Shown here: positions 15,923-54,139 of the stretch, in pieces | Position numbering within the stretch: the stretch's first letter is position 1 | Layout of the letters: every line of letters begins with the position of its first letter | The notes under the pieces: model-generated | Seen by the model: the letters and a program-made list of their open reading frames with translations, nothing else | The model's database searches: none | Told to the model about the DNA's origin: nothing | Source of the DNA: Bacteroidota bacterium | GTDB taxonomy: Bacteria; Bacteroidota; Rhodothermia; Balneolales; Balneolaceae | Assembly: GCA_051746985.1 (NCBI GenBank) | Contig: JBNJFP010000003.1 | Coordinates: 52,018 to 116,017 of the forward strand | Length of the DNA stretch: 64,000 nucleotides | Direction: 5' to 3' | Program-made: the position numbers and the translations under genes

Positions 15923-16040
15923 ACGGGCGGATTCTCCCTACAACGAAATTCAGGTTATTGCCACAGGATAGCCCTTCAACTCCTCTCACTATTTATGGCG
16001 GTCAGATGATATCATACCCTAAAAAGAAAACGGGTTGCTT

Positions 16041-16526
16041 ATGAAAGAGATAACAACGGAACGAGAATTGTATCTGGAGTTGATTCAGGATATGTATCAT
16101 GCGGAAGTGTTGTTGATTCCGGAATTGCGATTATTTATTGAGAAATCTTCTTCAGAGACGTTAAAGAATCACGTGCAGAACCATCTTAAAAATTCGCGTT
16201 TGCATGTCACCCGGCTGGAAGAAATTCAGGAGAACTTGAATGCGGAATTCATGGAAGAGCATTGCAGAACGATGAAATCGATGATTCTGGAAACCAAAGA
16301 GCTTGTGGAGCGGTGTTCTGGAAATAAACTGACAGATCGGGCTATCGCTGCATCTTTGCACCGTATTACACAATGTCAGATTACGGTATATCAGATGCTG
16401 TTATCGATGGCAGATGAACTGAATTTTCGCGGCCATAAAAAAATATTGCAAGAATTATTAGAGGATGAACAAGTATTTGATCATGTGATGGGTGCAAGCG
16501 GATCGAAACGAAAAGTACAAGCATAA
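16041..16526 (+). CDS. DUF892 (YciE/YciF-like) ferritin-like stress protein
   Basis: About 160-aa helical protein. The N-terminus L..DMYHAE and overall pattern fit the DUF892 family. ATG 16041 is preferred over the TTG at 16035. Confidence 0.65.
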   Translation: MKEITTERELYLELIQDMYHAEVLLIPELRLFIEKSSSETLKNHVQNHLKNSRLHVTRLEEIQENLNAEFMEEHCRTMKSMILETKELVERCSGNKLTDRAIAASLHRITQCQITVYQMLLSMADELNFRGHKKILQELLEDEQVFDHVMGASGSKRKVQA

Positions 16527-16781
16527 CTTGTAAGAAAAAGTTCTACACCTGCATACATAAAGACCTTACGTTACACCAGCAATTAGCATATTATATTAAT
16601 TATAGATTTTAAGAGAGAGTAATTGACATACTGAAATTTACACGCTTTCGGGTTTTGCTACGGCAGTTCTCGAAAGAGACCTAAAAATTACCTGTAGGTT
16701 TCTATTGGGTTATCCGATAGGATTATCGAATAGTGTGTAACAGGGCCATTTGTCGGCATCTGAAAAGTGCCGGCATTCAAA

Positions 16782-16883
16782 GCCAGTGAGTAAGGGTGTC
16801 CTGTTAAAGGGACTGAGATCATACCTTCTGAACTTGAATCGGGTTATGCCGACGAAAGGAACATCACTGGCTTTTTTATTTTT
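16782..16883 (+). ncRNA. TPP riboswitch aptamer (THI element) with P1 directly followed by a U-tract; no downstream ORF
   Basis: GCCAGUGA..GGGUGUCCUGUUAAAGGGACUGAGAUCAUACCUU..ACUUGAAUCGGGUUAUGCCGACGAAAGGAA..UCACUGGC then UUUUUUAUUUUU. The CUGAGA and AUGCC..CGAAAGGAA cores and the P1-P5 pairings are all identifiable by eye. Confidence 0.8.
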
Positions 16884-16891
16884 AATCTCAA

Positions 16892-17644
16892 TTAGTGTAC
16901 CGTATATCCACCGTCAACCGCCAGGGTTTGTCCTGTAATAAAAGAGGCTTTGTCCGAGCAGAGCCAGACGACGGCTTCTGCTACTTCTTCGGGACGGCCA
17001 AACCGCCCCATGGGATGTGCCGCGATGAGGTCTTTGCGTTCTTGGCTATGACTGCCCACAAACCGGTCAATCATTGACGTTTGAATGGCACCCGGACACA
17101 CGGCGTTTACACGGATTCCCTGCTCGGCATATTCCAGGGCTGCTGTTTTCGTAAGTCCGTTAATGCCGTGCTTGCTGGACACGTAGGCCGGGATGCCCGA
17201 AAATCCCAGTAGTCCTGCAACAGAAGAAACGTTAACAATGGCCCCGCCGGAATGTTTAAGCATTTCCGGGATCTGGTATTTTATACAGAGCCAAGTGCCC
17301 CGAAGGTTGATATCCATGACCCGCGACCAGTTTTCGGCAGAGCACTCCGGCGTAAACGCTTGGTCACCTTCAATGCCAGCATTATTGCACGCATAATTCA
17401 GCTGGCCAAAACGGTCGATCGTTCCCTCGATAAGTGATTTAACCTGGCTTTCTTGACTGATATCTACTTCGAGGGCCAACCCTTTTTCTCCCGACTTTTT
17501 AATGAGCTCAAGGGTTTCTTTTGCTGACTCAAGATTTTTGTCAGCGACAACGACAAAAGCCCCGTGCACGGCAAAAAGTTCGGCCGTTGCTCTTCCGATA
17601 CCTGCTCCAGCGCCTGTAACTAACGCTACTTTTCCTTTCATCAT
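16892..17644 (-). CDS. short-chain dehydrogenase/reductase (SDR)
   Basis: TGAGAGIG Rossmann motif, NNAG, and catalytic S...YVSSK. Confidence 0.9.
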   Translation of the reverse strand: MMKGKVALVTGAGAGIGRATAELFAVHGAFVVVADKNLESAKETLELIKKSGEKGLALEVDISQESQVKSLIEGTIDRFGQLNYACNNAGIEGDQAFTPECSAENWSRVMDINLRGTWLCIKYQIPEMLKHSGGAIVNVSSVAGLLGFSGIPAYVSSKHGINGLTKTAALEYAEQGIRVNAVCPGAIQTSMIDRFVGSHSQERKDLIAAHPMGRFGRPEEVAEAVVWLCSDKASFITGQTLAVDGGYTVH

Positions 17645-17709
17645 AATTTTTTCTCCCCTAATGTTATAATTATCGATTGATAATAAGGATTAAAGGAGTC
17701 AGGTATCGA

Positions 17710-17724
17710 CAGGTAAAATCCTTA
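17710..17724. promoter_or_regulatory. candidate operator, TAGGrA-N3-TyCyTA family
   Basis: CAGGTAAAATCCTTA has 2 mismatches. It lies 66-80 nt upstream of the SDR ATG. Confidence 0.35.
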
Positions 17725-17932
17725 CGCAAAGATAGTGGATTTATGGGCAGATACTTACTTTTGTAACACTACATGATTTATGTCCCTCTTTAGCTAATAG
17801 CTTTGTAAGGTTTTGCTTTACGCACCTGCAAGTAACCTATCTACATCAAATTACACCAACAGAGCATCTCTTTGTTAGTCAGATATGTAGAACTTTACAG
17901 TGTTAATAAACCGCTAATTAAGCAATACAACA

Positions 17933-18391
17933 ATGAAATATTTAATTATGGTATCGCTGCTATTACTCTCATGGGGCAGTCATTCTTCGGTATTTGCCCA
18001 GCAAACCGGTCAGCAACAACAGCAGATGCAGAAACAGATGCAACAGATGATGCAAAATGTGAATGATCTCATGGACCGAACGCAAACCATGAACCAGGAG
18101 ATGAATCGCCGTATGCAGCAAGTCCAAAATGAGGAGATGAAAAACCAGTACCAGATGATGCATCGTTTTAATGAACAGATGCAACTTACCCTGGGTACGA
18201 TGAAAAATGCCGCTGAACGGTGCGACATGATGCAAAAAGATCAAACGATGATGAGGGACCGTGATATGCAGCGCGATATGGATCGCCTTCGCCAAAACCT
18301 GCAGGATATGACGAGTCAGGCTGACGAAGCCGTACAGACCATGGAGCGACTTACCAAGCGCTTGGGTCAGCAGGCAAAGGCTTCAAACTGA
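17933..18391 (+). CDS. secreted Met/Gln-rich coiled-coil protein
   Basis: Signal peptide is present. By my count the mature part has about 21 Met in about 128 residues, in MQxQM-type repeats. Confidence 0.6.
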   Translation: MKYLIMVSLLLLSWGSHSSVFAQQTGQQQQQMQKQMQQMMQNVNDLMDRTQTMNQEMNRRMQQVQNEEMKNQYQMMHRFNEQMQLTLGTMKNAAERCDMMQKDQTMMRDRDMQRDMDRLRQNLQDMTSQADEAVQTMERLTKRLGQQAKASN

Positions 18392-18399
18392 TATAATCA

Positions 18400-19281
18400 G
18401 TGAAAATCGTCCATCTCATATTAAAAATTAATTTAGGTGTTCTGTTGGTATGGCCAGCAGGAGTAGAGCAGTTACAAGCACAAAACCTGTACTACTCCGG
18501 CTCCCTGCAATACGCAACAGGCTCCTACTATTTCACCGAGCGCACTGGCAGCTTCTATTTTAGCAACAGCGTGGGCGTGTCATCAACACGGTGGAGCCTG
18601 TACGTTTCGATGCCGCTTATTTATCAAAACACGCCGTGGATATCTTATTCTAAAACAGGAACAGGTCCGCTTCCCACTGGCGGCCCACAGAGTGGATTGG
18701 TAGATAAGCGCCAACAGCAGGGCAGTGGCAACGGTAGGGGGCAGCGACGGCATACCATAAATCCGGGACCGGCTGATACCGTTAGTTACAGTCAAACTCA
18801 GTTTGGTGATCCTTCTCTATCGGCAAATCTTAAGCTTTGGAACAGCCCGTCCGGACGAAGTATGATCAATGCCAATGGCGGACTCAAGTTTCCCGTCGCT
18901 GATGAGAATTCCGGTTTTGGTACCGGGGCCTGGGATGTAGGAGGAGGGCTAAGCTGGTCGCAGCGTATTCAACAACATTATCTTCTGATGGTAAGCGGGA
19001 TGTATTGGTATCTGGGAGATATGGACGAGCTCGATTTGAATAATTTGCTGAGCTACAGTGCGGCGTTGGGACGTACGTTTTCTGATGGCAAGTTGATGGG
19101 TACGGTATCTTTTATGGGATCCACTGAAATTATTGACGATGTAGATCCACCCGTAAATGTTGGAGCCGGTTTGAATTACCGGCTATCAAATGCAACAAAT
19201 CTTAACACAAATATCTTATTTGGACTAACAGAATCGGCATCAGACTTCAGCATAGGAGTAGGTTGGAGCGTAAATTTTTAA
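18400..19281 (+). CDS. outer-membrane beta-barrel-like protein
   Basis: GTG start 8 nt after the previous stop. Signal peptide, alternating-polarity strands and a C-terminal aromatic residue (GWSVNF) are present. Confidence 0.6.
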   Translation: MKIVHLILKINLGVLLVWPAGVEQLQAQNLYYSGSLQYATGSYYFTERTGSFYFSNSVGVSSTRWSLYVSMPLIYQNTPWISYSKTGTGPLPTGGPQSGLVDKRQQQGSGNGRGQRRHTINPGPADTVSYSQTQFGDPSLSANLKLWNSPSGRSMINANGGLKFPVADENSGFGTGAWDVGGGLSWSQRIQQHYLLMVSGMYWYLGDMDELDLNNLLSYSAALGRTFSDGKLMGTVSFMGSTEIIDDVDPPVNVGAGLNYRLSNATNLNTNILFGLTESASDFSIGVGWSVNF

Positions 19282-19301
19282 CAAAATACTTTGAGGATGA
19301 T

Positions 19302-19754
19302 ATGAAAAGATTATTAATAACTCTTGTTTTAGCAGCTTTGGTGGGTCCACTGTTAACAACGGCATGGGCCCAGCAGCGATCTGGAAAAGGGATGAAAAAG
19401 CAGATGTACGAGCGGGAATATGATATGGATGCGGTCGAGACGATCGAGGGAGAGGTGATTGAGATAACCTACAATCCCGGTCAGAGAAATGCCGCTCGCA
19501 TGGGCGTACACATGATGGTTGCTACGGATGCGGATACCATGTCCGTTCATTTGGGACCGGTTTGGTTTATGGAACAGCAGGAAGAAAAGATTGAGAAAGG
19601 TGACCAGGTTGCGATTACAGGTTCACGTATTACCTATGATGGCTCCCCGGCTCTGATTGCCGCCGAAGTAAAGCGGGAGCAAATGACATTGCGCCTGAGA
19701 GATCGGAATGGATATCCTGTTTGGAGAGGTTGGCGTAAGAGCGGGAATAATTGA
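19302..19754 (+). CDS. periplasmic OB-fold-like protein (MamS/MamX-like domain family)
   Basis: ATG 19302 gives the signal peptide MKRLLITLVLAALVG. The pattern IEGEVIEI..MGVHMMV..VHLGPVWF..GDQVAITGS..LIAAEV..LRLRDRNGYPVW fits that family as I recall it. Confidence 0.55.
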   Translation: MKRLLITLVLAALVGPLLTTAWAQQRSGKGMKKQMYEREYDMDAVETIEGEVIEITYNPGQRNAARMGVHMMVATDADTMSVHLGPVWFMEQQEEKIEKGDQVAITGSRITYDGSPALIAAEVKREQMTLRLRDRNGYPVWRGWRKSGNN

Positions 19755-19803
19755 TGTTAAAACTCGTGCCGTAGCTCTATTGTAATACGGAAAAGTGTGA
19801 GGT

Positions 19804-19831
19804 GTACCTTTTGGCTTGATCCAAAAGGTAC
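19804..19831. terminator. stem-loop between convergent operons
   Basis: GTACCTTTTGG-CTTGAT-CCAAAAGGTAC forms a perfect 11-bp stem. There is no clear U-tract. Confidence 0.4.
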
Positions 19832-20001
19832 TGAAAGATCAAGTCTTTGAATTATGTTTACGCTTAGACCGGCAGAATGCGTGGATTTTGATGGTCCGTA
19901 TTCTTGTGTAAGTAGTTTAAAAGTAGTCATCGGTACAAAATTCACAACCGCATTCTTTGGTCTTCGCACACAATTCAAGGCCAGTTATACCAACTCTAAA
20001 A

Positions 20002-20253
20002 TCATCCACTTTCTGTAGCTGATCTACTCAAAAATTCCTTAATACTTTTTAACGTCCTTAGTTTCCCATAGTCCTCCTCCGGAATTTCAACCTGAAGTTC
20101 CTCGCTGATACCAACCATCATGTTGTAAAAGTCCATAGAGTCAATATCAAGCGTCGGACCTAATTCCTCGTCGGCTTTTAACTGATCAAGATCGGCTTCC
20201 GGGGCAACGCGATGCAGGTGCTTTTTGATGATTGTATCAATGTCGGTGTTCAT
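20002..20253 (-). CDS. acyl carrier protein-like (phosphopantetheine-binding) protein
   Basis: 83-aa acidic four-helix pattern with a Ser attachment context LDIDSMDF. Its start overlaps the E2 stop by 4 nt (ATGA). Confidence 0.7.
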   Translation of the reverse strand: MNTDIDTIIKKHLHRVAPEADLDQLKADEELGPTLDIDSMDFYNMMVGISEELQVEIPEEDYGKLRTLKSIKEFLSRSATESG

Positions 20254-21467
20254 AAATCTTCAGGGTGTTGCAGTTGAGCGTTTAATTTTTCGAGAAATCG
20301 GGATCCCGTATGTCCGTCAGTAGCGCGATGATCTCCGGCCAGTACTACAGAGAGTGTTGGACGAATTCCAATAGAACCATCAACGGCTCGGGTCCGATCG
20401 GTAATTTTCCCAAAGCCAAGTAAAGCTACTTGTGGTGGATAAATAACGCCATACACTTTTTCAGCGCCGCGTTCGCCCAAGCTGGTAATGGTGATTGTGG
20501 CACTGCTAATTTCCCGGCTCTTAAGGTGTCCCTCACGCGCCCGGGTTACCATATCTACAAAATCACTGCGAATTTCATCTAAGGATTTGAGATCAGCATC
20601 CAAAATGGCTGGAATTACCAGTCCGCCTTGACGCAGTGAAACCGCAAAACCTACGTGGATGCCCTCCTCGATATGCATCGCCTCATCCGTCCAGAAGCCA
20701 TTCAGTTCCGGCACTTCGGTCAGCGCATTGGCCACAGCTTTGATCAGCAGCATGGGTGGCAGCAGGCGTTTATCTACCGGTCGGTTTTTATTTTCATCAC
20801 TAAGCCATTCAAGTGCCGCCTTCATGTCAATATCTGTTTCCAGGTAGTAGTGCGGGATTTCTTTATTGGATTTAGACATGGCAGCGGCAATTGATTGACG
20901 CATGCTTTTGCCCTCGGCTTTTGATACATGCTCAGCCATATCCAATTCTTTTTCAAAAGTTTCGTCTGCGGTTTTTTGCTGAGCAAATGCCTCCACATCT
21001 TTGCGATGAATAGTGCCGCCCGATCCGCTGCCTGTTACCTTTTTGAGGTCAATATTTAAATCTTCTGCTACCCGTCTTGCTAAAGGGGATGCCTTTGGTC
21101 GTTGTTTGAGGGTCTCTCTTTTTTCTATTGCCGGCTTCTTGGTTATAACTTCCTGCTCACCTTCGCTCCGAACTTCTTTCTTTTTTTCTTTCGGTGTTTC
21201 AGACGGTTTTACTTCGACTTCTTCGGCTTTTCCTTTGCCATTAATGACGGCCATCACCGAACCAACGGGTACAACTTCCCCTTCTTGAGCCACCAACTCC
21301 GTAATCACGCCATCCTCAAACACTTCGACATCGATCAGACCCTTCTCGGTATCAATTTCCCCGATAATATCTCCTTTTTTTACCGTGTCGCCCGGTTGCA
21401 CGTGCCACTGAATAAGTTTAGCCTCGATCATCTGTGATCCCAGGCTCGGCATGATGAACTTACCCAT
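20250..21467 (-). CDS. 2-oxoacid dehydrogenase E2 (dihydrolipoamide acyltransferase)
   Basis: N-terminal lipoyl domain ([11 protein letters not shown]), a linker, a subunit-binding domain ([15 protein letters not shown]) and a catalytic domain with DHRATDG. ATG 21467 overlaps the E1-beta stop (ATGGGTAA). Confidence 0.9.
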
Positions 21468-22458
21468 GGAGACCTCCCATCTTTTGAATGGATTTAATGA
21501 TTTGTTCGGGTTGTGGCAATGAAGCCTGTTCGAGGTGTTTGGCATAGGGCGCCGGCACTTCCATCCCGCAAATGCGCTCGACCGGTGCATCTAAATCATA
21601 GAACAATTCCTCGGTAATACGGGCACTGAGTTCGGCCGAAATGCCCCCGCTTTTCCATCCTTCATCGACAATAACGGCGCGACCCGTTTTGGTTACGGAT
21701 GCCAAAATCGTTTCACTATCGAGCGGACGCAGCACGCGGAGATCAACCACCTCAGCATCAATATCTTCTTCGGATAATTTTTCGGCCGCTTTGAGTGATT
21801 TCTGGAGGCCGATTCCATACGTCAAAATGCTCACGTCATTTCCTTCGCGACGCACTTTGGCTTTTTGAATATCTACGGCTTGCCCATTGCCGGGCAGCGG
21901 ACCTTCTGAGTTATATAACGTAGAATTTTCGAAAATGAGTACCGGATCGGGGTCTTCCAAAGCTGGCCATAGCATGCCGCGGGCATCTTCGATCGTGGCG
22001 GGCGTTAAAATTTTGAGTCCCGGTATGTGCGCGTACCAACCCTCGAGACTTCGAGAGTGTTGGGCTGCCAGTTGTTTACCACCACCCGTGGCCATCCGAA
22101 TGACAATGGGCACGGTAAACTGTCCGCCAGACATATACTGCAAAATGGCCGCCGTATTGATAATTTGATCCGCTGCCAACAGGCTAAAATTCACGGTCAT
22201 AATTTCTACGATAGGACGCATGCCCGCCACCGCCGCTCCGATGCCGCAGCCGGTAAAGCCCGATTCCGATAGAGGCGTGTCAATGATGCGTTGATCCCCG
22301 AATTCTTCCAACATGCCCTCGCTGACATTGAAGCAGCCTCCGTACAATCCTACGTCTTCGCCCATCAGAAATACGCGGTCGTCTTTTAACATGGCCTCCC
22401 GCATCGCTTCCCGAACGGCTTGACGATAAGTAATAGTTTGTTCTGCAACTTGTGGCAT
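21460..22458 (-). CDS. 2-oxoacid (pyruvate/acetoin-type) dehydrogenase E1 beta subunit
   Basis: 332 aa. The N-terminus [24 protein letters not shown] and the transketolase-like pyrimidine-binding and C-terminal domains are typical. Confidence 0.9.
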
Positions 22459-22461
22459 AAT

Positions 22462-23475
22462 TTATTCTCCTGTAAGGTTGCTGTAAACGTATTTGGTGAT
22501 ATCTTCGATAGGTTCATCCGTCCCATTTTCGGCAAACTGCACCGATGCTTCGACCTCTTCAGTTACCTGCTTATTTAACTGATCCAATTCTTTATCATTT
22601 AATAGACCCTCTTCCTTCAAGTAATCAGCATAAGTTGTAATGGGATCTTTTTTCTTCCACTCTTTTATTTCTTGTTTAGATCGATATCGCTCCGGATCAA
22701 ACATAGAATGTGCCCGGTAACGATAGGTCTGGCACTCCAAAAAATAGGGTTTCTTTTTTTTGCGGATGTGTTTTGTAGCTTTGTCCGAGGCCTTTAATAC
22801 AGCCTTAATGTCCATGCCATCTACGCTATCGGCCTCCATGTTATAGGCTTTTGCTTTCTTCACCAGGTTTGTTTCAGCCTCGGCCAGCTCAAAGGGCATA
22901 CCCATCGAATAGAGGTTGTTTTCACAGACAAAGAGGACTGGCAGATCCCAGAGCGAAGCCAGGTTTAATGACTCGTGGAATTCGCCTTCATCGACCGCAC
23001 CTTCGCCAAAAAAGCAACAGGCCAAGGCATCCTTGTTCTGACGTTTGTAAGCCATAGCGACGCCCACAGCCATTGGCAAACCGTTGCCAACAATCGCCGA
23101 TCCGCCCAAAAAGTTGGTGGCCTTATCATAAAGGTGCATCGAGCCACCGCGTCCCCCACTGCATCCTTCGGCCTTGCCGTATAGCTCTGCCATGATGCTT
23201 TCCATCGACACGCCGCGAATTAGTGCATGTCCATGCTCACGATAAGTGGCTATAACCGCATCTTCTGTTCTGAGATTTTCAATTACGCCTACTGCAACGG
23301 CTTCTTCGCCATCATAGAGGTGTAAAAAGCCACGGATTTTTTCCTGGGTGTAAAACTCATAGGCTTTTTCCTCGAGCTGACGAATACGCATCATCTGTTT
23401 AAGCAGATGCAGATTTTCATCTTTTTCTGTCTTCGACTTCTTTTTTAAAGTCGCACTTTTCTTCTTGGTCGCCAT
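22462..23475 (-). CDS. 2-oxoacid dehydrogenase E1 alpha subunit (TPP-dependent)
   Basis: FLHLYDGEEAV, the TPP-binding GDGA-like region FFGEGAVDEGEFHESLN..NN, and YRYRAHS. ATG 23475 (MATKKK) is chosen because the longer track start would overlap the upstream gene. Confidence 0.9.
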   Translation of the reverse strand: MATKKKSATLKKKSKTEKDENLHLLKQMMRIRQLEEKAYEFYTQEKIRGFLHLYDGEEAVAVGVIENLRTEDAVIATYREHGHALIRGVSMESIMAELYGKAEGCSGGRGGSMHLYDKATNFLGGSAIVGNGLPMAVGVAMAYKRQNKDALACCFFGEGAVDEGEFHESLNLASLWDLPVLFVCENNLYSMGMPFELAEAETNLVKKAKAYNMEADSVDGMDIKAVLKASDKATKHIRKKKKPYFLECQTYRYRAHSMFDPERYRSKQEIKEWKKKDPITTYADYLKEEGLLNDKELDQLNKQVTEEVEASVQFAENGTDEPIEDITKYVYSNLTGE

Positions 23476-23488
23476 AATTTGATCTGTT

Positions 23489-25231
23489 TTAGGATGATGT
23501 TTTTTCAACCTTTTCGCGTTCCTGATCCCGCAGCAATCTCCGCATGATTTTTCCACTACGTGTTTTGGGCAGTTCGTCGATAAATTCGATTTCTTTGGGC
23601 GCTACCGCTGAACCCAATCGCTCGCGGGCAAATCCTTTAAGTTCCAGGTTGAGCTCTTCGCTCGGTTCAAAACGCTCTTTCAATGTGATAAAAGATTTGA
23701 CCAGTTCACCCATCACGGGATCCGGTTTCCCGATTACCGCTGCTTCGGCTACCGCCTCGTGCTCCATCAAAATACTTTCCACCTCGAACGGACCCACCAT
23801 GTGTCCGGCCGTTTTGATGATGTCGTCCGCCCGCCCGACAAACCAGAAATACCCATCTTCATCCCGGCTGGCCAGATCTCCGGTCAGATACCAATCACCT
23901 ACAAAGCATTGCTGGTAGCGCTCCTCGTCATCGAGGTAGCCTCGAAACATTGAGGGCCATCCTTTCTTTAGCGCCAGGTGACCTGATTCACCCGTCTCAG
24001 CAAATTTTATATCGTCTCCTCCGTTCTCATCATAATCTAAAATTTCAGCTTCAACGCCGGGTAGCGGTTTACCCATTGATCCCGGCTTGACCGGCATAGA
24101 GGGATAGTTGGCAATCATGATGCCGCCCGTCTCGGTTTGCCACCAGTTGTCGAGGATCGGCATGTCCAGCATTTTTTGAGCCCATCGCACGGCTTCGGGA
24201 TTCAGCGGTTCGCCCACGCTGTGAATCAGTCGCAGGGCACCTAAATCATATTCTTTGCGAATATCAATATTCATGCGCATTAGTCGTCGAATGGCCGTTG
24301 GAGCTGTGTACCAAATACTGACTTTTTGTTCTTCCAGCGTCTGATACCATAATCGAGCGTCAAACTCCGCTTCGACTACCAGGTTGGTAATGCCATGCAT
24401 TAATGGAGATAATATCCCATACGAAGTTCCGGTCACCCATCCCGGATCGGCGGTGCACCAGAAGATGTCATCGGAGTGGAAATCCAGCACATATTTACCG
24501 GTAATAAAATGGGTTAGCGCTGCTTCGTGGACATGAATCACGCCCTTCGGCATGCCGGTGGTTCCGCTGGTGAAATGCAACAGCGCCCGGTCTTCGGGGG
24601 ACGTTTCAGTAATAACGAAATCAGAGCTGGCCTCCATCATCAATCGCTGGAAAGAGCGCACATTCTCGGATTGGTGATCAGTAATGTCAGTGAGTAATAC
24701 ATATTGTAGATGATCCAAACGATCTAAAAGCCCAGATATCTTTTTATCGAAAAGTGATTTTGTGGTTACTAAAATTTTGGCTTTTCCCTTGCTTAGTCGC
24801 TGGTAAATGGGTTCGGGACCGTAAATTGAAAAAAGCGGACAGTAAATGCTTCCATTTTTCAGGGTGCCCAGTGCTGAAATGTACAACTCGGGAATACGTC
24901 CGGTAAGGGTACAGACGACATCGCCTTTTTGAAGGCCTAAGTTTTGCAAAACATTGGCAAAGCGATTGGTCTGTTCCTTTAGCTCATGATAGGTGAACTC
25001 TTTACTGTTTCCCTGATTCCCAATCCAGTGCAATGCCACTTTCCCTTCTTGGATGTTATCCGCATGACGATCAATCGCCAAGTAGGCCATATTAAATCCC
25101 TTTTTGCCGGAAGATTTTACTAGCTCTTCTTTAACCTGATCCCATCGAAAAGAAGCGTATTCTTTATCGTAGTTACTCATATTAGGATTAGGTCGCCTAA
25201 GAAATTGTTCGGTCAGATCTTTTCGAGACAT
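23489..25231 (-). CDS. AMP-forming acyl-CoA synthetase (AcsA/acetate-CoA ligase-like)
   Basis: AMP-binding motifs LHFTSGTTGMPKG, WQTETGG, YLTGD and KTRSGKIMRR. ATG 25231 is preferred over the TTG at 25276. Confidence 0.85.
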   Translation of the reverse strand: MSRKDLTEQFLRRPNPNMSNYDKEYASFRWDQVKEELVKSSGKKGFNMAYLAIDRHADNIQEGKVALHWIGNQGNSKEFTYHELKEQTNRFANVLQNLGLQKGDVVCTLTGRIPELYISALGTLKNGSIYCPLFSIYGPEPIYQRLSKGKAKILVTTKSLFDKKISGLLDRLDHLQYVLLTDITDHQSENVRSFQRLMMEASSDFVITETSPEDRALLHFTSGTTGMPKGVIHVHEAALTHFITGKYVLDFHSDDIFWCTADPGWVTGTSYGILSPLMHGITNLVVEAEFDARLWYQTLEEQKVSIWYTAPTAIRRLMRMNIDIRKEYDLGALRLIHSVGEPLNPEAVRWAQKMLDMPILDNWWQTETGGIMIANYPSMPVKPGSMGKPLPGVEAEILDYDENGGDDIKFAETGESGHLALKKGWPSMFRGYLDDEERYQQCFVGDWYLTGDLASRDEDGYFWFVGRADDIIKTAGHMVGPFEVESILMEHEAVAEAAVIGKPDPVMGELVKSFITLKERFEPSEELNLELKGFARERLGSAVAPKEIEFIDELPKTRSGKIMRRLLRDQEREKVEKTSS

Positions 25232-25317
25232 TGATTCCCTTTCTATTTGTTGGCTGGATAATTTCAGTATATCCAATAGGTAAAAGGGGCAGGAAAAGGA
25301 TATCTACTGTTTTGCTG

Positions 25318-25332
25318 TAGAAGTATTACCTA
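25318..25332. promoter_or_regulatory. candidate operator, TAGGrA-N3-TyCyTA family (degenerate)
   Basis: cTG TAGAAGTATTACCTA CAAg lies 87-101 nt upstream of the acyl-CoA synthetase ATG. Confidence 0.3.
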
Positions 25333-25404
25333 CAAGGTTTTTGCAATATGATATCTGTGTGAGGACAAATGGGTAACCTTGGAAAGGCAAGCAGCCGAGG
25401 CAGA

Positions 25405-25419
25405 TAGGGTAATGTACTA
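25405..25419. promoter_or_regulatory. candidate operator, TAGGrA-N3-TyCyTA family (degenerate)
   Basis: TAGGGTAATGTACTA CAAG lies 99-113 nt upstream of the cytochrome-porin ATG at 25518. Confidence 0.3.
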
Positions 25420-25517
25420 CAAGCGGGCGGGTAAATACCCATTAATAAAGTGATCAGGGTTACAGCTATTATCCGTTGAGAAATTATTGTTGGAAGAAGA
25501 CTCAATCAGGAGTAGAT

Positions 25518-26678
25518 ATGAGAATAAATCGACATGGGGCCTCCTTGCTGTTTTTGATACTCACCTTTTTTTTCGTAGCAGCAATTACCCAAACGAATAC
25601 TCCCAGAAAGGATATAAAGAATTATGAATCTGCTCTTATCGACACGGTGAGCATGCAGTCTCCAGGAAAAACACTCTACTCTGAAGCGTGTGCTGCGTGT
25701 CACGGTGTTACCGGAAAGGGGGTGGCGCAAAGTCAACTCGGATTTGAAACACCGGTGCCTGATTTTTCGGATTGTGATTTTTCGAATCGAGAGCCCGATG
25801 GTGACTGGATTGCTGTAGCTCACCAGGGAGGACCGGTTCGGGGATTTGCAAAAGATATGCCTGCTTTCGGCAAGGCGTTAAGCGAGCAGCAGCTTCAAAA
25901 AATAATGGACCATATTCGCACCCTCTGCAGGGATGAAAACTGGCCGCGCGGAGAATTAAATATGCCCCGTCCGTTAGTAACTGAAAAGGCGTACCCCGAA
26001 GATGAAGCGGTGATCAGTACCTCGGTTGATATCGAAAACGAAGGCAATGTGCTGAACGAACTGGTCTATGAGCAACGGTTTGGAGCTCGCAATCAATTAG
26101 AGATTGTAGTGCCTTTTGGTTTTAGCGAAACTCCGGCGGGCAATTGGAATGGTGGGCAGCTGGGTGATGTGGCATTGGGAGTTAAACGAGCGCTATATCA
26201 CAACTTTGACAGCGGGTCGATTTTTAGTGCTGCGGGAGAAGTACTTTTTCCTACCGGTGATCGAGCAACGGGCTTTGGTAAGGGAACAACGATCTTTGAG
26301 CCTTTCATTTCCTTTGGACAACTCCTGCCAGCCAATGGATTTTTACAGCTTCAGAGCGGAGTGGAACTTCCTTTGCTACGTGACAAAGCTACGGAAGAAG
26401 CTTTTTGGAGGGCGGCTTTGGGCACCAGCCTGACACACGGTAGCTGGGGAAGAACGTGGTCGCCCATGGTCGAAGTTTTGGGTTCACGGGAATTTGAGTC
26501 AGGTGGGGTTAACCACTGGGATATTGCGCCGCAAGTGCAGGTGACCCTCAATAAACGTCAGCACATCATGATGAATGTGGGCGTACGAATTCCCGCTGAT
26601 GATGCCAGCCGCGACACCCAGTTTATGGTATATATCCTTTGGGATTGGTTCGACGGCGGATTTTTTGAAGGATGGTGA
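25518..26678 (+). CDS. monoheme class I cytochrome c fused to a C-terminal outer-membrane-barrel-like domain
   Basis: Signal peptide, a single CAACHG heme motif with a downstream Met (KDMPAFG), then about 250 aa of alternating beta-strand-like segments ending in an aromatic residue (FEGW). ATG 25518 is chosen. Confidence 0.65.
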   Translation: MRINRHGASLLFLILTFFFVAAITQTNTPRKDIKNYESALIDTVSMQSPGKTLYSEACAACHGVTGKGVAQSQLGFETPVPDFSDCDFSNREPDGDWIAVAHQGGPVRGFAKDMPAFGKALSEQQLQKIMDHIRTLCRDENWPRGELNMPRPLVTEKAYPEDEAVISTSVDIENEGNVLNELVYEQRFGARNQLEIVVPFGFSETPAGNWNGGQLGDVALGVKRALYHNFDSGSIFSAAGEVLFPTGDRATGFGKGTTIFEPFISFGQLLPANGFLQLQSGVELPLLRDKATEEAFWRAALGTSLTHGSWGRTWSPMVEVLGSREFESGGVNHWDIAPQVQVTLNKRQHIMMNVGVRIPADDASRDTQFMVYILWDWFDGGFFEGW

Positions 26679-26707
26679 CAAGGTTCTCAAATCATAAATA
26701 GAGCGTT

Positions 26708-28366
26708 ATGTATAAAAATGTATTCATCTTATTCGTACTTCCGCTTAGCGTGCTTTTGGTCGGCACGTTTTTTTATCAATCTGCCGATAGTAATGATCAA
26801 AATGTAACGTTTTTTCAAGATACGAATCCTCATCTTTTTGCAACGGCGGATGCCTGCATGAGCTGTCACAATGGTTTGGTTACGCCCTCGGGCGAAGATA
26901 TTTCTTTTGGTACGGATTGGTCTGCTACCATGATGGCCAATTCGGCGCGCGATCCTTACTGGCATGCGGCGGTGCGTCGAGAGGTTATGGATCATCCCGA
27001 ATCGCAGGTGCATATCGAAAGCGAGTGCTCAACCTGTCACATGCCGATGGCTCATTACGAGGCCAAGTATGGTGGTAATACGCCCGAAATATTTTCTAAT
27101 TTGCCGATAAATCAAGCAATGAGTCGGCAAAATCTGCTGGCCGCCGATGGCGTTTCGTGTACCACCTGCCATCAAATTACTGAAGAGAACCTGGGCACCG
27201 CGGAGAGTTTTGTCGGACGGTTCGGGATTGATACGCTCAATAGTTTGGGACAGCGAGAAGTATTTGGACCTTATCCTGTTGATGAGGGACTGCAGAATAT
27301 TATGCATTCTTCGTCGGGGTTTTTACAGGCTGAATCGAAACATATTCAGCTTTCCGAAACCTGTGCTACTTGTCATACGCTGATTACCGAGTCACTGGGG
27401 CCGGATGGAGAAGTGGTGGGAGAATTGCCCGAGCAGGTACCGTATCAAGAGTGGCAACACAGCAGCTTTGTGGATGAACAGAGTTGCCAATCGTGTCACA
27501 TGCCGGTCGTGAAAGAGGAAGTGGCGATTTCTTCAGTGATGGGTCAGCCCCGTGAGGAGGTATCGCGCCACACCTTCAAGGGCGGCAACTTTTTTATGCT
27601 GAAGATGCTCAATCGCTATCGAAATGATTTGGGCGTCAAGGCGCTGCCCCGGGAGATGGATGATGCCGTTAACCGGACGATAGATCATCTGCAAAGCGAG
27701 TCGGCAAAAATGGAGTTTAACAGGCTCGAAGTTGACGGAAACGAGTTACTGGCAGAAGTTGATATCACAAATCTTGCCGGACATAAACTGCCCACGGCCT
27801 ATCCTTCGCGAAGAACCTGGATTCATTTCACTATTACTGACGATGAGGGGAAGGTGCTTTATGAGTCCGGTGCTGTACGCGAGGATGGTTCTATTGTTGG
27901 AAATGTTAACGATGAGAATCCCAGCACATTTGAGCCTCATTACACCGAAATCAGCGAGCCCGATCAGGTACAAATTTATGAAACGATCATGGTCGATCCC
28001 CAGGAAAATGTTACAACCGGCTTGTTAACAGCGGTTCGGTTTATCAAAGATAACCGCATTTTGCCGGATGGATTCGACAAGGAAACGGCAGATGAATGGA
28101 TTGAGGTGCACGGGGCCGCCTTTGAGGACGATAATTTTTTGGGAGGAAGTGATCAGGTTACATATCGAGTAGAGCTTCCAGAAACCGATAAACCACTAAA
28201 AATAAATGCTGAGTTGTGGTATCAGCCCATTGGATTCCGGTGGGCCCAGAATTTGGCAGATTACAATGCCGATGAGACCAATCGATTTGTGGGCTATTTC
28301 GATGCTATGTCGGCAGAATCTGCTTTAAAGTTGACCGAAGTTGAAACAAAATATAATCAAGAATAA
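26708..28366 (+). CDS. pentaheme c-type cytochrome
   Basis: Signal peptide plus five CxxCH motifs: CMSCH, CSTCH, CTTCH, CATCH and CQSCH. Confidence 0.85.
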   Translation: MYKNVFILFVLPLSVLLVGTFFYQSADSNDQNVTFFQDTNPHLFATADACMSCHNGLVTPSGEDISFGTDWSATMMANSARDPYWHAAVRREVMDHPESQVHIESECSTCHMPMAHYEAKYGGNTPEIFSNLPINQAMSRQNLLAADGVSCTTCHQITEENLGTAESFVGRFGIDTLNSLGQREVFGPYPVDEGLQNIMHSSSGFLQAESKHIQLSETCATCHTLITESLGPDGEVVGELPEQVPYQEWQHSSFVDEQSCQSCHMPVVKEEVAISSVMGQPREEVSRHTFKGGNFFMLKMLNRYRNDLGVKALPREMDDAVNRTIDHLQSESAKMEFNRLEVDGNELLAEVDITNLAGHKLPTAYPSRRTWIHFTITDDEGKVLYESGAVREDGSIVGNVNDENPSTFEPHYTEISEPDQVQIYETIMVDPQENVTTGLLTAVRFIKDNRILPDGFDKETADEWIEVHGAAFEDDNFLGGSDQVTYRVELPETDKPLKINAELWYQPIGFRWAQNLADYNADETNRFVGYFDAMSAESALKLTEVETKYNQE

Positions 28367-29344: not shown

Positions 29345-29472
29345 AAAGGCGCTCCTAATTTTTAGGCTTTTGTTAACTTCCGATTTGGGAAATTAGTATA
29401 ACAAGTGGTCAATTGTTGTAATGAATTTCCTTATATCTGAATGCTTGCCTCTTCAAACTGGATAGCTGAATA

Positions 29473-29487
29473 TAGGGAGGATCCTTA
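29473..29487. promoter_or_regulatory. candidate operator, perfect TAGGrA-N3-TyCyTA palindrome
   Basis: TAGGGAGGATCCTTA is intergenic. It is followed by the block ATCCTTACAGGCA-N10-TTCTCTTA, which is shared with the site at 54047-54077. Confidence 0.5.
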
Positions 29488-29860
29488 CAGGCAATTTATC
29501 CTGTTCTCTTACATCAAGTTGTTAGCTCATCATATATAATATCGGCCCTTACTTGATAGCTAACTATATTCATCAAGTGAGACTTGGTTAACAGTTTTCA
29601 ATAAATAAAACGACGTATTCATGGAAGAGTTAGATCCGATATCCCCACAAGAAAAATTAATTTTTAAAGAACATTATCATAGAATTCAATATGCCTTAAA
29701 AAGGATGTCAAGGCGGAGTTATTTAAAAGTTATTACTAACTCATCTAATAGATACCAAGGCAGATATGAAAGATTTCAAGGGATCTACTAAATGTCATCA
29801 AATTGTAATTTCTTGAAATTTTTACGGCATAAATTTGAATAAACAGAATGAGAGTAAAAA

Positions 29861-40128: not shown

Positions 40129-40523
40129 CAGAGCTTGCTCAAAAATCATACATCAAGGAAATTGAACGTATAGTCGAACATCTTATGGGAGATTGGATGG
40201 CCCATAATTTTTCAGATATGGACCGTTATTTTGCCAATCATGTAGTGATGATTGAATCCGATACCCACAGGCGCATCATGGGCATTGACAATGTTTTAGA
40301 ACAATATGAGCTATTCGTCGAAGATGCTGAAATACATGAATATGACATTACAGAGCTATTGATAGATTTGGTTGAAGAAACAGCGGTAGCTTATGTTACC
40401 TATCGAATTAAATATGAAACAGATGGGACTAAGTTTGACGAGTCCAATACCGAAATCCTGGTATTCAATGAGCACAACAAAGAGTGGAAAATCGTGTGGC
40501 GGACCCAGCTTATAGGTACCTAA
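40125..40523 (+). CDS. NTF2/SnoaL-like small protein
   Basis: 132 aa with a cone-like alpha+beta pattern ending in W.IVWR. It overlaps the hemG-like stop by 4 nt (ATGA). Confidence 0.5.
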   Translation: MTELAQKSYIKEIERIVEHLMGDWMAHNFSDMDRYFANHVVMIESDTHRRIMGIDNVLEQYELFVEDAEIHEYDITELLIDLVEETAVAYVTYRIKYETDGTKFDESNTEILVFNEHNKEWKIVWRTQLIGT

Positions 40524-42483: not shown

Positions 42484-42697
42484 AATAAGTTACGTTTTCT
42501 GTATTAAATACGATGAATCACTTAAGTAATTAGTTTTGTGTATTTCGCATTGTAATCATTGCAGTATTAGTTTGTTGTAGTATTATCTCTGAATGTAATT
42601 TCTTTATCATATCGATGGCCTGTGAATTATTTCCCTACAAAAAAAATTCGTAACCGTTTTGTGAACCTGTAGGAATTGAATGAAAAGAAACAACCTC

Positions 42698-46982: not shown

Positions 46983-47076
46983 AATAGTCGTCGTTTTTTA
47001 GAAAAGTACTACTCAGCGCAAATCACTGTTGTACGAACTTCCCGCAGTCCATTTTATAAAATCAACTACGTTACTG

Positions 47077-47091
47077 TAGGGCAATTGCTTA
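47077..47091. promoter_or_regulatory. candidate operator, TAGGrA-N3-TyCyTA family
   Basis: cTG TAGGGCAATTGCTTA CAAg lies in a divergent region, 95-109 nt from the ABC ATPase ATG and 128-142 nt from the dksA-like ATG. Confidence 0.4.
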
Positions 47092-47218
47092 CAAGCCGGG
47101 CTTGATAAAGGCGTCAGTAAATTTATTACAGTAATCTCAGTCGAACTCCTATAGACTTCCTTTCTTATAAATTGATAATTAATACAAACAAGTAGTTGTT
47201 AATAGAATAGTTGATTTT

Positions 47219-47620
47219 ATGTCTGCAGAACAATCCCCAAAAACCCAATTAAGTGACAAAGAGTTGCAATATTTTAAAAACCTGCTCCTCGAAAAACGTG
47301 AAGAAGCCCAGGGGGAACTGGATATCATTCGTGATGCGCAATCCAATTTGGATGATGCCGATGATGCCGATCAATCATCGCAGACGCACCACATGGGTGA
47401 TGTAGGTACCGACGAGCAGGATACTGAAATGAATTACCTGCAAATCGAGCGCTTGCGGGAATATATTATGCATATAAATGAGGCCCTGGAACGTATCGAG
47501 AATAAAACCTACGGTATATGCCAGGCAACCGGCAAGCCTATTGCGAAAGGACGTTTGGAAGCCGTGCCGCATACTCGATACAGCATTGAAGCAAAAAACA
47601 TGGGAATAGCTGAAAATTAA
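47219..47620 (+). CDS. TraR/DksA-family protein lacking the C4 zinc finger (paralog of 29861..30253)
   Basis: SDKELQYFKNLLL.., HHMGDVGTD and the C-terminus NKTYGICQATGKPIAKGRLEAVPHTRYSIEAK. Confidence 0.75.
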   Translation: MSAEQSPKTQLSDKELQYFKNLLLEKREEAQGELDIIRDAQSNLDDADDADQSSQTHHMGDVGTDEQDTEMNYLQIERLREYIMHINEALERIENKTYGICQATGKPIAKGRLEAVPHTRYSIEAKNMGIAEN

Positions 47621-52611: not shown

Positions 52612-52762
52612 AGTATCGCCTTCTGTTGTTTAGTAATTGCTATCCAGAGCTTGGGAAAGATATGTTCGGGAACCTGTTGGTAATTTAAACTTACCGTGCA
52701 TAAGCGCTTGAAATTGCAATGGCATCCTCTTGAAGGGTGTAGTCAAATCATGTAGGCAGTAT

Positions 52763-52777
52763 TAGGAATAACTCTTA
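52763..52777. promoter_or_regulatory. candidate operator, TAGGrA-N3-TyCyTA family
   Basis: TAGGAATAACTCTTA CAA has 1 mismatch. It lies 90-104 nt upstream of ATG 52867 and about 150 nt upstream of ppsA. Confidence 0.4.
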
Positions 52778-52866
52778 CAATCAATCTTGAACAAAACGTA
52801 CAGCAAAAGTGGTAGGGAAAGATAATTTTATAACATGTTCCGAAATATAAATATAGCGATGTGGTT

Positions 52867-53538
52867 ATGTACGAAATTATAATGCAACTTCCTTTTAATG
52901 GTCACCGCGTAGATGGAAGGCTTACTCTGCCGGTGAAAGCCAAAAGTATAATCATCTTTTCGCATGGTTTTGGTCGGTCATCATTGATGCCCCATGAACA
53001 TCGAATGGCCGTAACCTTTCAACAAGCGGGTTATGGGACGCTTGTTTTAGATACCGTTGGCGATTATCAAGATATTTCTGATAACCCTCGGGAGGTTGAA
53101 TATCTGGCTAAGGGATTGCTTGCCGCTACCAACTGGCTGCACAGCCATTCGGAGTATAATCTGCTGGATATAGCCTATTGTGGAAGTGGATCAGGCGCTG
53201 GTCCGACCCTGCGTGCGGCATCAGAGTTGGGAGAGGTGATCAAAGCCGTTGTTTGTCTGGGTGGATATATGGATCTGGAAAAAACGCAACTGTCAGAAGT
53301 ATCTGTTCCAACGCTGCTAATAGTAGGCGAGCTTGATTTTGAAACGGTTGGAAGAAATAAAAAGGCACTTTCAAAATTGAGTAGCCCCAAACAGTTAGCG
53401 GTTATTCCCGGCGCATCCCATCTTTTTGAGGAGCCTGATAAGCTGAACGAAGCAGCACATATTGCCATATCTTGGTATCGAAAGTATCTGTCATCAGGAA
53501 AAGAAAAGTCGGAAACACTTTTCAGGCCCAGTGTTTAA
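52867..53538 (+). CDS. dienelactone hydrolase-like alpha/beta hydrolase (paralog 1)
   Basis: IIFSHGFG, a nucleophile-elbow-like YCGSGSGAG and the C-terminus VIPGASHLFEEP shared with 54140..54805. ATG 52867 is preferred over the GTG at 52861. Confidence 0.7.
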   Translation: MYEIIMQLPFNGHRVDGRLTLPVKAKSIIIFSHGFGRSSLMPHEHRMAVTFQQAGYGTLVLDTVGDYQDISDNPREVEYLAKGLLAATNWLHSHSEYNLLDIAYCGSGSGAGPTLRAASELGEVIKAVVCLGGYMDLEKTQLSEVSVPTLLIVGELDFETVGRNKKALSKLSSPKQLAVIPGASHLFEEPDKLNEAAHIAISWYRKYLSSGKEKSETLFRPSV

Positions 53539-53568
53539 CATGAATAACTTACACTAAGTCAGCAGGCG

Positions 53569-53985
53569 ATGAGGAAGACAACAATGGAACAAACAAATTT
53601 GCCGGTAGCAGATAGCGAGGTTACCTCTGGTCAGATAAAACGTTTTTTAGAGGTTATCGAGGAAAGTACCTGTCAGTATTACGCCAGTGATTTTCTTGAT
53701 CTCCTGGATGATGAGAGTTTGGGCATCATAGAAGAGAGGATTCATCACATGTTTGAAGTGTTTCAAACCCTGGAGGTTTCCACAGAAAATCATTGCTATT
53801 TGGTTTTTCGGTGTACGCCCAAATCGGTGGTTTATAAAGACTGGAAAATATCGGAGCTGGCTTGTGCCTATATGTTTATGAATGGGGATTTAACCGATGT
53901 AAGAGTTATTGCAGAACAGCAAAGCAGACTTCTCAACCGAATATTGAACACGATGCATCCCCGAAAGATAGCGCCGATGATATAG
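53569..53985 (+). CDS. hypothetical protein
   Basis: 138-aa ORF between the two DLH paralogs. I recognise no motif. Confidence 0.45.
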   Translation: MRKTTMEQTNLPVADSEVTSGQIKRFLEVIEESTCQYYASDFLDLLDDESLGIIEERIHHMFEVFQTLEVSTENHCYLVFRCTPKSVVYKDWKISELACAYMFMNGDLTDVRVIAEQQSRLLNRILNTMHPRKIAPMI

Positions 53986-54038
53986 CTTTTACTTTGCAAA
54001 TTGCCCTGTTGAAGAACCTGCCACAAAGAAAGGGCTCG

Positions 54039-54053
54039 TAATAGGTATCCTTA
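54039..54053. promoter_or_regulatory. candidate operator, TAGGrA-N3-TyCyTA family (weak left arm)
   Basis: TAATAGGTATCCTTA CAGGCA. Its right arm and downstream block ATCCTTACAGGCA-N10-TTCTCTTA are identical to 29481-29511. It lies 87-101 nt upstream of ATG 54140. Confidence 0.4.
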
Positions 54054-54139
54054 CAGGCAGGGATACAATTTCTCTTATAGTCTGGTCAATAATAATTGGT
54101 GATTATGGGCAAAGAGATCATCATAAAAAGGTGTTAAAT

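Follow-up and report, generated by a model that had tools for sequence, protein, structure and literature searches.

Is a short palindrome that recurs upstream of many genes in one contig of a Balneolaceae bacterium the operator of a single regulon and, if it is, which protein reads it? We addressed this in a 64-kb stretch of DNA (hereafter the window, i.e., the whole stretch of 64,000 nucleotides that was analysed), the SusC/SusD genes of which are those of a Bacteroidota-type genome, and in which an earlier note made from the sequence alone had described a 15-bp palindrome, TAGGRA-N3-TYCYTA, as a candidate operator of a stress regulon. Our searches leave very little doubt that the palindrome is a real and conserved operator. 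Our overall explanation, to which we assign a probability of roughly 0.7, is that it is the operator of a NarL/FixJ-family response regulator paired with a FixL-like kinase that has a heme-PAS domain and a HisKA_3 core. The identity of the binding protein, the direction of regulation and the signal are what we infer; for the signal, low O2 or another heme ligand, we rely on the homology of the kinase to FixL.

A recurrent 19-bp dyad in intergenic DNA

The three perfect matches to the 15-bp pattern, at 29473, 33711 and 39456, are where they had been placed, and the original estimate that they were unlikely to be chance was borne out: they correspond to five strand matches against 0.07 expected, and five or more were reached in 0 of 100 shuffles. 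When up to two mismatches were allowed the enrichment was absent (32 observed and 32 expected in the window), so the pattern is too short to carry the signal. Its flanks revealed a wider conserved unit, TGTAGG...CCTACA, in agreement with the TG...CA flanks that had been pointed out (TGTAGG-N7-CCTACA); the hexamer TGTAGG was intergenic in 13 of its 32 occurrences in the window, of which 13% is intergenic DNA. The palindrome as first described is a real motif cut short, the conserved unit being a 19-bp dyad, TGTAGGG-N5-CCYTACA, with the consensus TGTAGGGAAWTTCCYTACA over 83 distinct intergenic sites; sequence beyond these 19 bp is not conserved. Its half-sites are of the T-R-G-G type and lie roughly one turn of the helix from each other, as in operators of NarL/FixJ-type regulators.

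Sites were scored with a palindromic matrix of 23 columns fitted by expectation-maximisation to the intergenic DNA of the window (~13 bits, ~23 expected sites), and those scoring at least 12 bits were accepted. There were 18 such intergenic sites in the window against 0.13 expected in a first-order Markov simulation (this comparison counted 17 window sites, as the intergenic set was slightly trimmed there), and none in coding DNA, which makes up 87% of the window and in which the top matches scored merely 11.9 and 10.8 bits. All 18 sites are therefore intergenic, as had been claimed, and all lie within 16.5-54.1 kb, with 0 sites in the remaining 2.8 kb of intergenic DNA. The distance from dyad to start codon, given before as 70-140 nt, proved to be wider, at 49-216 nt and mostly 77-160. 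Eleven of the 15 positions listed in the earlier note (29473, 33711, 39456, 36472, 52763, 47077, 32511, 25318, 25405, 54039 and 17806) scored 12-21 bits; the other four did not hold up as well, with 17710 weak (8.5 bits), 15926 a half-site only (3.0 bits), and 42578 (5.9 bits) and 35583 (1.3 bits) unsupported, the real sites beside these last two being 42621-42639 and 35597-35615. These two and a further five (16529-16547, 17827-17845, 29417-29435, 32589-32607 and 47112-47130) make up seven sites absent from the earlier list.

Across the 83 sites a fully complementary stem was found in none, most sites keep 4-6 of the 8 mirrored pairs, and deviations from the consensus were one-sided in 238 cases versus two-sided in 51. 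The halves thus vary independently, as is expected of a dyad bound by a protein dimer, unlike an RNA hairpin; an Rfam search matched nothing at the dyad sites.

The motif also has a phylogenetic footprint. Loci of relatives fetched by a P-type ATPase search (Fodinibius, Aliifodinibius, Gracilimonas, Rhodohalobacter and Halalkalibaculum, at 65-80% identity) carry hsp20, universal stress protein (USP), PEP synthase, SDR, DLH, flavodoxin_5, MMPL, acetate-CoA ligase, dksA-like, MgtC/DUF4010 and pyr_redox genes, and the fact that the same families recur in shuffled order points to the behaviour of a regulon rather than that of an operon. The exact 15-bp pattern had 0 matches in 45 related loci, where the motif became visible once the consensus was relaxed. 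With the window-trained matrix, 16 Balneolaceae loci, 12.6% of whose DNA is intergenic, gave 20 sites in intergenic and 4 in coding DNA at 12 bits or more (binomial p ~7e-15), and a Markov simulation of the relatives' intergenic DNA gave 0.93 expected versus 19 observed; training on the relatives alone led away to an AT-rich motif of 5 bits, which makes cross-validation in that direction uninformative. Sites precede orthologs of genes that have them in the window, i.e., hsp20 (loci L005 and L007), pyr_redox (L039), acetate-CoA ligase (L003) and a dksA-like gene (L003, four sites). The proposal of a stress-regulon operator is thus supported by intergenic enrichment, by conservation before orthologs, by the independent variation of the two halves and by the lack in the window of a matching regulator (tblastn).

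A candidate regulator and its promoters

In six of the related loci (L005-7, L011, L012 and L014) we found, beside hsp20 and the ATPase gene, a 464-residue PAS-PAS-HisKA_3-HATPase kinase together with a 223-residue REC+GerE regulator; the Response_reg and GerE domains, a combination seen in the relatives only, were located at, e.g., L005:8385-9056 and L014:14376-15041. The top relatives of the regulator among solved structures (PDB) are NarL (1.4e-26) and DevR/DosR (2.9e-26), followed by EvgA (3.7e-25), VraR, RcsB (5e-17) and FixJ. The second PAS domain of the kinase matches the FixL heme domain (1e-26, ~45% identity) and the heme-pocket residues EHD..Y, IGIGREV and RKDG..FP are kept in most kinase homologs, while the kinase core is of the DesK/NarX type (HisKA_3); neither protein reached the NCBIfam equivalog cutoffs.

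The link between this pair and the dyad comes from position. The top dyads in L005 (20.4 bits) and L007 (18.4 bits) lie upstream of the kinase-regulator operon, and a search of 80 metagenome loci, fetched by kinase alignment alone, with the window-trained matrix gave 51 intergenic versus 25 coding matches where 9.5% of the DNA is intergenic. A dyad scoring 12 bits or more stood no further than 400 nt upstream of the kinase gene in 24 of 69 scorable loci (metagenome and genome) versus ~0.8 expected, this evidence being in part not phylogenetically independent (e.g., L053-56 share one sequence). Such dyads usually stand 155-185 nt before the start codon, across kinase identities of 39-100% and GC contents of 40-68%, and variants such as GTAGGGG-N5-CCCTAC are recognisable even in loci of 60-68% GC. 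The loci fetched in this way also carry hsp20, PEP synthase, SDR, ATPase, DLH, DUF892, USP, the hyp152 and outer-membrane-protein pair, flavodoxin_5 and phosphoribosyltransferase genes, and no other DNA-binding regulator recurs across the ~100 loci. The place of the dyad before the kinase gene suggests that the system regulates itself and makes the accompanying response regulator the likely cognate one; most simply, the pair would be a two-component system under its own control, with the dyad recognised by its regulator, and on this co-localisation we consider the assignment of the dyad to this pair quite probable, with odds of about three to one in its favour. In the regions upstream of the kinase gene (L005 6727-6820, L007 6715-6810, L050 9781-9830 and similar) the dyad is followed after 2-4 nt by an extra half-site, TGTAGGG(G), and then by a TATGAT/TATAAT-like box, and a weaker full site often lies ~60 nt further upstream, an arrangement that suggests cooperative binding of several dimers at the autoregulated promoter.

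To examine promoter geometry, 41 unidirectional sites were oriented toward their gene. A T at +24 was present on the gene-proximal side of 31 of the 41 and on the distal side of 12, and TANNNT hexamers starting at +26 to +34 numbered 29 on the proximal versus 12 on the distal side. A -10-like box ~29-30 nt from the dyad centre would place the dyad near -41/-42, overlapping the -35 position, which is the geometry of a class II activator; the proximal DevR box lies at about the same position. We somewhat favour hypoxic activation from about -41.5 on this basis.

In the mechanism that we propose, the kinase would respond to low oxygen, or to a heme-ligand or redox signal related to it, and phosphorylate the NarL/FixJ-family regulator (with its LuxR-type helix-turn-helix), a dimer of which would bind the 19-bp dyad TGTAGGG-N5-CCYTACA. 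Centred ~41-42 bp upstream of the transcription start, the dyad would replace the -35 element and the bound dimer would recruit RNA polymerase, and the operator would in this way co-activate ~15 transcription units of a 38-kb island: hsp20, USP-MgtC, the P-type ATPase, ZIP, a spare cytochrome oxidase subunit I, a HemG-like flavodoxin, PEP synthase with an M50/CBS protease, two DLH genes, an acetate-CoA ligase/2-oxoacid dehydrogenase operon, a cytochrome-porin cluster, an ABC exporter, two DksA-like genes and two RNAs with a thiamine pyrophosphate (TPP) aptamer. The regulator pair itself would be encoded outside the window.

Several observations weigh against this explanation. No such regulator or kinase is encoded in the 64-kb window, in which tblastn found only an NtrC-type REC domain (29% identity), as the earlier note had said of a cognate regulator; the closest relatives, L001 and L039, do not have the pair within the stretch fetched, and L011, L012 and L014 carry it with no site upstream. 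The adjacency of the pair to dyads could also mean that it is a mere target of another factor. As the matrix was fitted to the window, the counts there are not independent of it, and both activation and the placement at -41.5 are deduced from a statistical -10 signal in partly related sequences. Lastly, the Fodinibius/Aliifodinibius branch (L005-L007, L047-L049 and L060; kinase residues ~185-195) has LEDNY or SDDNY in place of EHD.Y and thus no proximal heme histidine at the aligned column, so oxygen sensing is not assured there. This branch nonetheless has the strongest autoregulatory dyads, and the ligand or cofactor of its sensor may have changed.

Other explanations of the dyads differ widely in how well they accommodate these results. 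The operator may be real and be read by another factor encoded elsewhere, of the Crp/Fnr, MerR or another LuxR type, with the FixL-like pair as one more of its targets, which would agree with the lack of a cognate regulator in the window and with the pairs of L011, L012 and L014 that have no site upstream; a similar gene set in Burkholderia is under an Anr/Fnr-like factor (PMC3721108), and the window has one perfect FNR-type box at 36407-36420. We think this unlikely, however, given that no other DNA-binding regulator recurs in the ~100 loci, that FNR-type boxes (TTGAT-N4-ATCAA with at most one mismatch) are not enriched in the window (6 vs 4.6 expected), that the half-site is like those of LuxR helix-turn-helix proteins of the FixJ type, and that the dyad tracks the kinase-regulator pair over the whole range of kinase identity and GC content given above. 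Less likely again is repression by the same regulator or another protein, in which a protein on the dyad, which overlaps the -35 region, would block RNA polymerase until a stress signal arrives: the proximal half CTTACA does resemble the -35 hexamer TTGACA, the dyad overlaps the inferred promoter region, and upstream of the kinase gene a third half-site stands between the dyad and the -10-like box, but the 19-20 nt from the TACA end to the -10-like box exceed what a sigma-70 -35/-10 pair allows. Positive autoregulation would account for the sites before the operon of the regulator, and its relatives NarL, FixJ and DosR are mainly phosphorylation-dependent activators, both of which count against a repressor.

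Two further readings have been largely or wholly refuted. The only regulator-like system in the window is an operon at the island edge for an NtrC-type sigma-54 activator (55459-56832, -) and a histidine kinase (56842-58452, -), for which the dyads might serve as upstream activating sequences; distances of 70-200 nt would suit such sites, and in Myxococcus such systems control oxygen-use regulons that include USPs (PMC11841059). We nonetheless regard this as very improbable, because a GG-N10-GC sigma-54 promoter is missing from every stretch between a dyad and its gene, the sole good intergenic one, TGGCACTGTTTCTGCA at 58498-58513 (-), precedes the NtrC operon itself, the pair is absent from related loci that have the motif, and the NmpR site GCGCA-N5-TGCGC is unrelated to the dyad (PMC11841059). 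Least probable of all is that no protein binds the dyads and that they are instead hairpins in RNA (terminators or thermometers), copies of a dispersed repeat or matches that arose by chance in AT-rich spacers; we treat this reading as refuted. While perfect copies could form an 8-bp stem with a 3-nt loop, and the 15-bp pattern at two mismatches showed no excess, the controls expect less than one site where 17-19 were seen, the flanks are not conserved, the Rfam search was empty at the sites, and the lack of compensatory pairing in the 83 sites rules out a hairpin. The regulator of the FixL-like pair remains the reader of the dyad that we prefer.

Genes and RNAs of the island

The genes that the dyads adjoin were identified with Pfam, with which the names used in the earlier note agree. 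From the left end of the island, the dyad TGTAAGAAAAAGTTCTACA (16529-16547; 18.4 bits in the matrix scan) lies directly past the DUF892 stop codon and on its + side faces a -10-like TACGTT at 16567 and a TPP-aptamer RNA. Two adjacent dyads at 17804-17822 (12.1 bits) and 17827-17845 (12.6 bits), with a weak third site at 17708-17726 (8.5 bits), separate the SDR gene (16892-17644, -) from a divergent operon for hyp152, a MetA-type outer-membrane protein and hyp163 (17933-19754, +); the hyp152 and outer-membrane-protein pair adjoins the kinase gene in L052, L062, L066, L072 and L078. The next divergent region has TGTAGAAGTATTACCTACA at 25316-25334 (19.5 bits) and a second dyad at 25403-25421 (14.1 bits), between the operon for acetate-CoA ligase (NCBIfam, 869.8 bits), E1 alpha, E1 beta, E2 and ACP (25276 down to ~20002, -) and the cytochrome c-porin/multiheme cluster (25476-28366, +), the two forming a joint feature at 19757-28366. 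Upstream of the first dksA/traR zinc-finger gene (29861-30253, +; 74% identity to its L003 ortholog) are TGTAATGAATTTCCTTATA at 29417-29435 (18.2 bits) and TATAGGGAGGATCCTTACA at 29471-29489 (16.8 bits), the latter containing the perfect match at 29473.

A dyad at 32509-32527 (13.6 bits) lies 77 nt upstream of the operon for a USP and MgtC/DUF4010 (30355-32441, -), and another at 32589-32607 (12.4 bits) faces, on its + side, a -10-like TACAAT at 32628 and a second TPP-aptamer RNA. The hsp20 gene (33130-33585, -; Pfam and synteny), which in the relatives accompanies the kinase-regulator pair more constantly than any other gene, has TTTAGGAATTCTCCCTACA 133 nt upstream (33709-33727, 19.2 bits; the perfect match at 33711). 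A verbatim copy of this hsp20 was found only on a 9-kb Logan contig from SRR34348043. The gene for cytochrome c oxidase subunit I (CtaD; 33779-35506, -; NCBIfam 680.7 bits against a cutoff of 670.75) stands alone between ZIP and hsp20, with no subunit II or III genes nearby and with its own operator 100 nt upstream (35597-35615, 15.7 bits), and looks like a spare catalytic subunit within a low-oxygen island. A dyad at 36470-36488 (14.4 bits) is shared by the divergent genes for the ZIP transporter (35642-36385, -; 94 nt) and a Ca-type P-type ATPase (36683-39409, +; 204 nt), both with Pfam and NCBIfam matches. The ATPase gene has in addition a sigma-70-like promoter at 36639-36668 (+; TTGAAA, 18 nt, TATAAT; 11 of 12 matches) that ends 15 nt before its start codon, and due to this near-consensus promoter the ATPase may be constitutive, with the dyad mainly serving ZIP. 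We also observed a perfect FNR/Anr-type palindrome, TTGATCTGCATCAA, at 36407-36420, 22 nt upstream of the ZIP start codon, and a copy with one mismatch, TTGTTAACCATCAA, at 33621-33634, 36 nt upstream of hsp20; as the FNR motif is not enriched, these are perhaps chance matches or else a second layer of oxygen control.

Further along, TGTAGGAAAAATCCCTATT (39454-39472, 16.7 bits; the perfect match at 39456) lies 105 nt upstream of a gene pair for a HemG-like flavodoxin_5 protein and a SnoaL-like protein (39568-40523, +; NCBIfam 137.5 bits, slightly below the cutoff of 142), and a dyad at 42621-42639 (14.8 bits) lies 147 nt upstream of the gene for a pyridine-nucleotide-disulfide oxidoreductase (Pyr_redox_2; 41209-42483, -) with a weak match to sulfide:quinone reductase. 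The window's top scorer, TGTAGGGCAATTGCTTACA at 47075-47093 (21.2 bits), and a second dyad at 47112-47130 (12.0 bits) stand between the ABC-MacB-HlyD exporter operon (46982 down to 42698, -) and the divergent second dksA/traR zinc-finger gene (47219-47620, +). A dyad at 52761-52779 (13.3 bits) similarly divides the operon for PEP synthase (NCBIfam, 1134 bits) and an M50/CBS peptidase (52611 down to 49077, -) from the first DLH paralog (52861-53538, +), and the last, at 54037-54055 (16.7 bits), is 85 nt upstream of the second DLH paralog, which starts at 54131 (+). An archease gene downstream of the latter (54936-55361; joint feature 54131-55361) may belong to the same transcription unit.

Small open reading frames at 29621, 40562, 40898, 47642 and 29135 had no conserved counterparts in the fetched loci, and the first four had no Pfam match; on these grounds they were not counted as genes. 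The regulators encoded in the window are LexA, the two DksA/TraR-type proteins and the NtrC-type pair at 55.5-58.5 kb. The LexA repressor gene (10277-10924, -; LexA_DNA_bind and Peptidase_S24), which precedes the island and has OsmC and class A beta-lactamase-like genes beside it, has no connection with the palindrome.

The two TPP riboswitch aptamers of the window, at 16782-16877 (+; Rfam 61.1 bits) and 32832-32927 (+; 67.6 bits), have no gene downstream; the first converges on the SDR 3' end and the second points toward the 3' end of hsp20. Two more, likewise with no gene downstream, were found in the relatives L001 (3418-3513, +), where the aptamer points into SDR, and L008 (7618-7710, -), and all four score 61-68 bits, above the Rfam cutoff. 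The closing stem runs directly into a U-tract in both window copies and in that of L001, while in L008 a distinct hairpin, a canonical terminator, comes after the aptamer. By alignment the window RNAs are paralogs with a common 5' block, TTGACATACTG...GCTACGGCA. Each is faced by one of the dyads described above with its -10-like box at +29/+30 (TACGTT at 16567; TACAAT at 32628), an arrangement that predicts RNAs of ~300 nt within the regulon; the first aptamer is probably the 3' part of such an operator-driven RNA, and these transcripts could be riboswitch-gated antisense RNAs or small RNAs. No TPP aptamer was found in nine metagenome loci with the kinase-regulator pair.

Comparison with known low-oxygen systems

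The island resembles the regulon of the Mycobacterium tuberculosis DosS/DosT-DosR system in its wiring as well as its content. In both a heme-based HisKA_3 kinase (the heme here being deduced from FixL homology) feeds a NarL-family regulator, and in both tens of genes would be directly controlled through a palindrome of ~20 bp, with apparent autoregulation. DosR members include alpha-crystallin/hsp20, several USPs, a cation P-type ATPase and ribonucleotide reductase (PMC3721108). By Pfam, hsp20, a USP and a cation ATPase are present in the window, and a class II ribonucleotide reductase, a phosphoribosyltransferase and a nicotinate phosphoribosyltransferase in L039. In this Halalkalibaculum locus the latter three lie together at 2197-6241 with adjoining dyads at 4108 and 6282, a cluster that we take to mirror the nrdZ, Rv0571c and pncB2 cluster of the DosR regulon. 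The DosR regulon also has a phosphoribosyltransferase, a DLH-type hydrolase, an M50/CBS protease, archease and pncB2, for which there are matching families in the window and L039.

The differences from DosR are nevertheless considerable. Our kinase has two PAS domains of the FixL type and no GAF domain, whereas the DosS and DosT sensors have tandem GAF domains, and the host belongs to another phylum (Balneolaceae, Bacteroidota sensu lato). The DosR box is GGGAC-N4-GTCCC within TTSGGGACTWWAGTCCCSAA; its core at up to two mismatches occurred 11 times in the window versus 17 expected, with none at the dyads, and the gap from GGG to CCC is 5 nt in the dyad versus 8 nt in the DosR box. The recognition helix of the regulator is KTIESYRAR where that of DosR is KTVKNYVSR, so that Lys182 and Asn183 of DosR are replaced. 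In the literature, which we searched incompletely, no DosR-like regulon was found described in Bacteroidota or Balneolaceae.

With FixL-FixJ of rhizobia and Caulobacter the system shares the FixL-type PAS domain, a regulator composed of REC and a LuxR-type helix-turn-helix, and above all the operator half-site, which among the known boxes is closest to that of FixJ. While the motif had gone unrecognised in the earlier note, the half-site TAAGGGAA/GTAGGGAA, of the TAGGGA/TAAGGA type, is common to the dyad, the published FixJ site TAAGTAATTTCCCTTA and the SELEX product GTAGTTTCCC (PMC4999443). The dyad differs from the FixJ site in being one base off in spacing (15/19 bp vs 16/18 bp), the kinase core is HisKA_3 and that of FixL is HisKA, and the scores against the NCBIfam equivalogs are far below cutoff (83.5 bits vs 255 for FixJ and 186.8 vs 850 for FixL). 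FixJ has very few direct targets (fixK and nifA), in contrast to the ~15 effector promoters that appear to be controlled directly here, with no FixK-type intermediary. Nearly the same half-site (TAGGAA/TTCYTACA) also occurs in sites of other LuxR-type regulators, namely the RcsB box TN(G/A)GAN4TC(T/C)NA, which has an N4 spacer where the dyad has N5, the BvgA heptad TTTCCTA and the EvgA half-site TTCYTACA, with TACA at the centre of the EvgA repeat and not at its edges.

In layout the closest parallel is lxa of Burkholderia cenocepacia, a 50-gene island with USPs, alpha-crystallin, a cation ATPase, ribonucleotide reductase, metabolic enzymes and two-component systems, which has one motif at 17 intergenic points and is required for anoxic persistence (PMC3721108). 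Both have one island and one repeated operator; the lxa motif, unlike the dyad, is Anr/Fnr-like (TGA-N6-TCA), with a presumed CRP/FNR regulator.

As a more far-reaching and rather doubtful proposal, we speculate that Balneolaceae, and probably also neighbouring halophilic Bacteroidota, have an undescribed relay in which a kinase with a FixL-type heme-PAS domain and a DosS-type HisKA_3 core and a NarL/FixJ-subfamily regulator directly fire ~15 promoters of a DosR-like island, together with two TPP-gated antisense or small RNAs. On our main explanation, the island would be a third independently wired low-oxygen persistence island after mycobacterial DosR and the Anr-like lxa of Burkholderia, with the same effector families (hsp20, USPs, P-type ATPase, phosphoribosyltransferases, M50/CBS protease and DLH) under a different sensor and operator in another phylum. 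The role of this conserved effector set in hypoxic dormancy would become approachable in a halophile that is not a pathogen, and the operator model could be used for regulon annotation in Balneolaceae and related metagenome-assembled genomes. As judged from PAS in place of GAF, HisKA_3 in place of HisKA, equivalog scores that are not reached, a distinct operator and apparently direct control of effectors, the predicted system would work like DosRST or FixLJ while being a member of neither.

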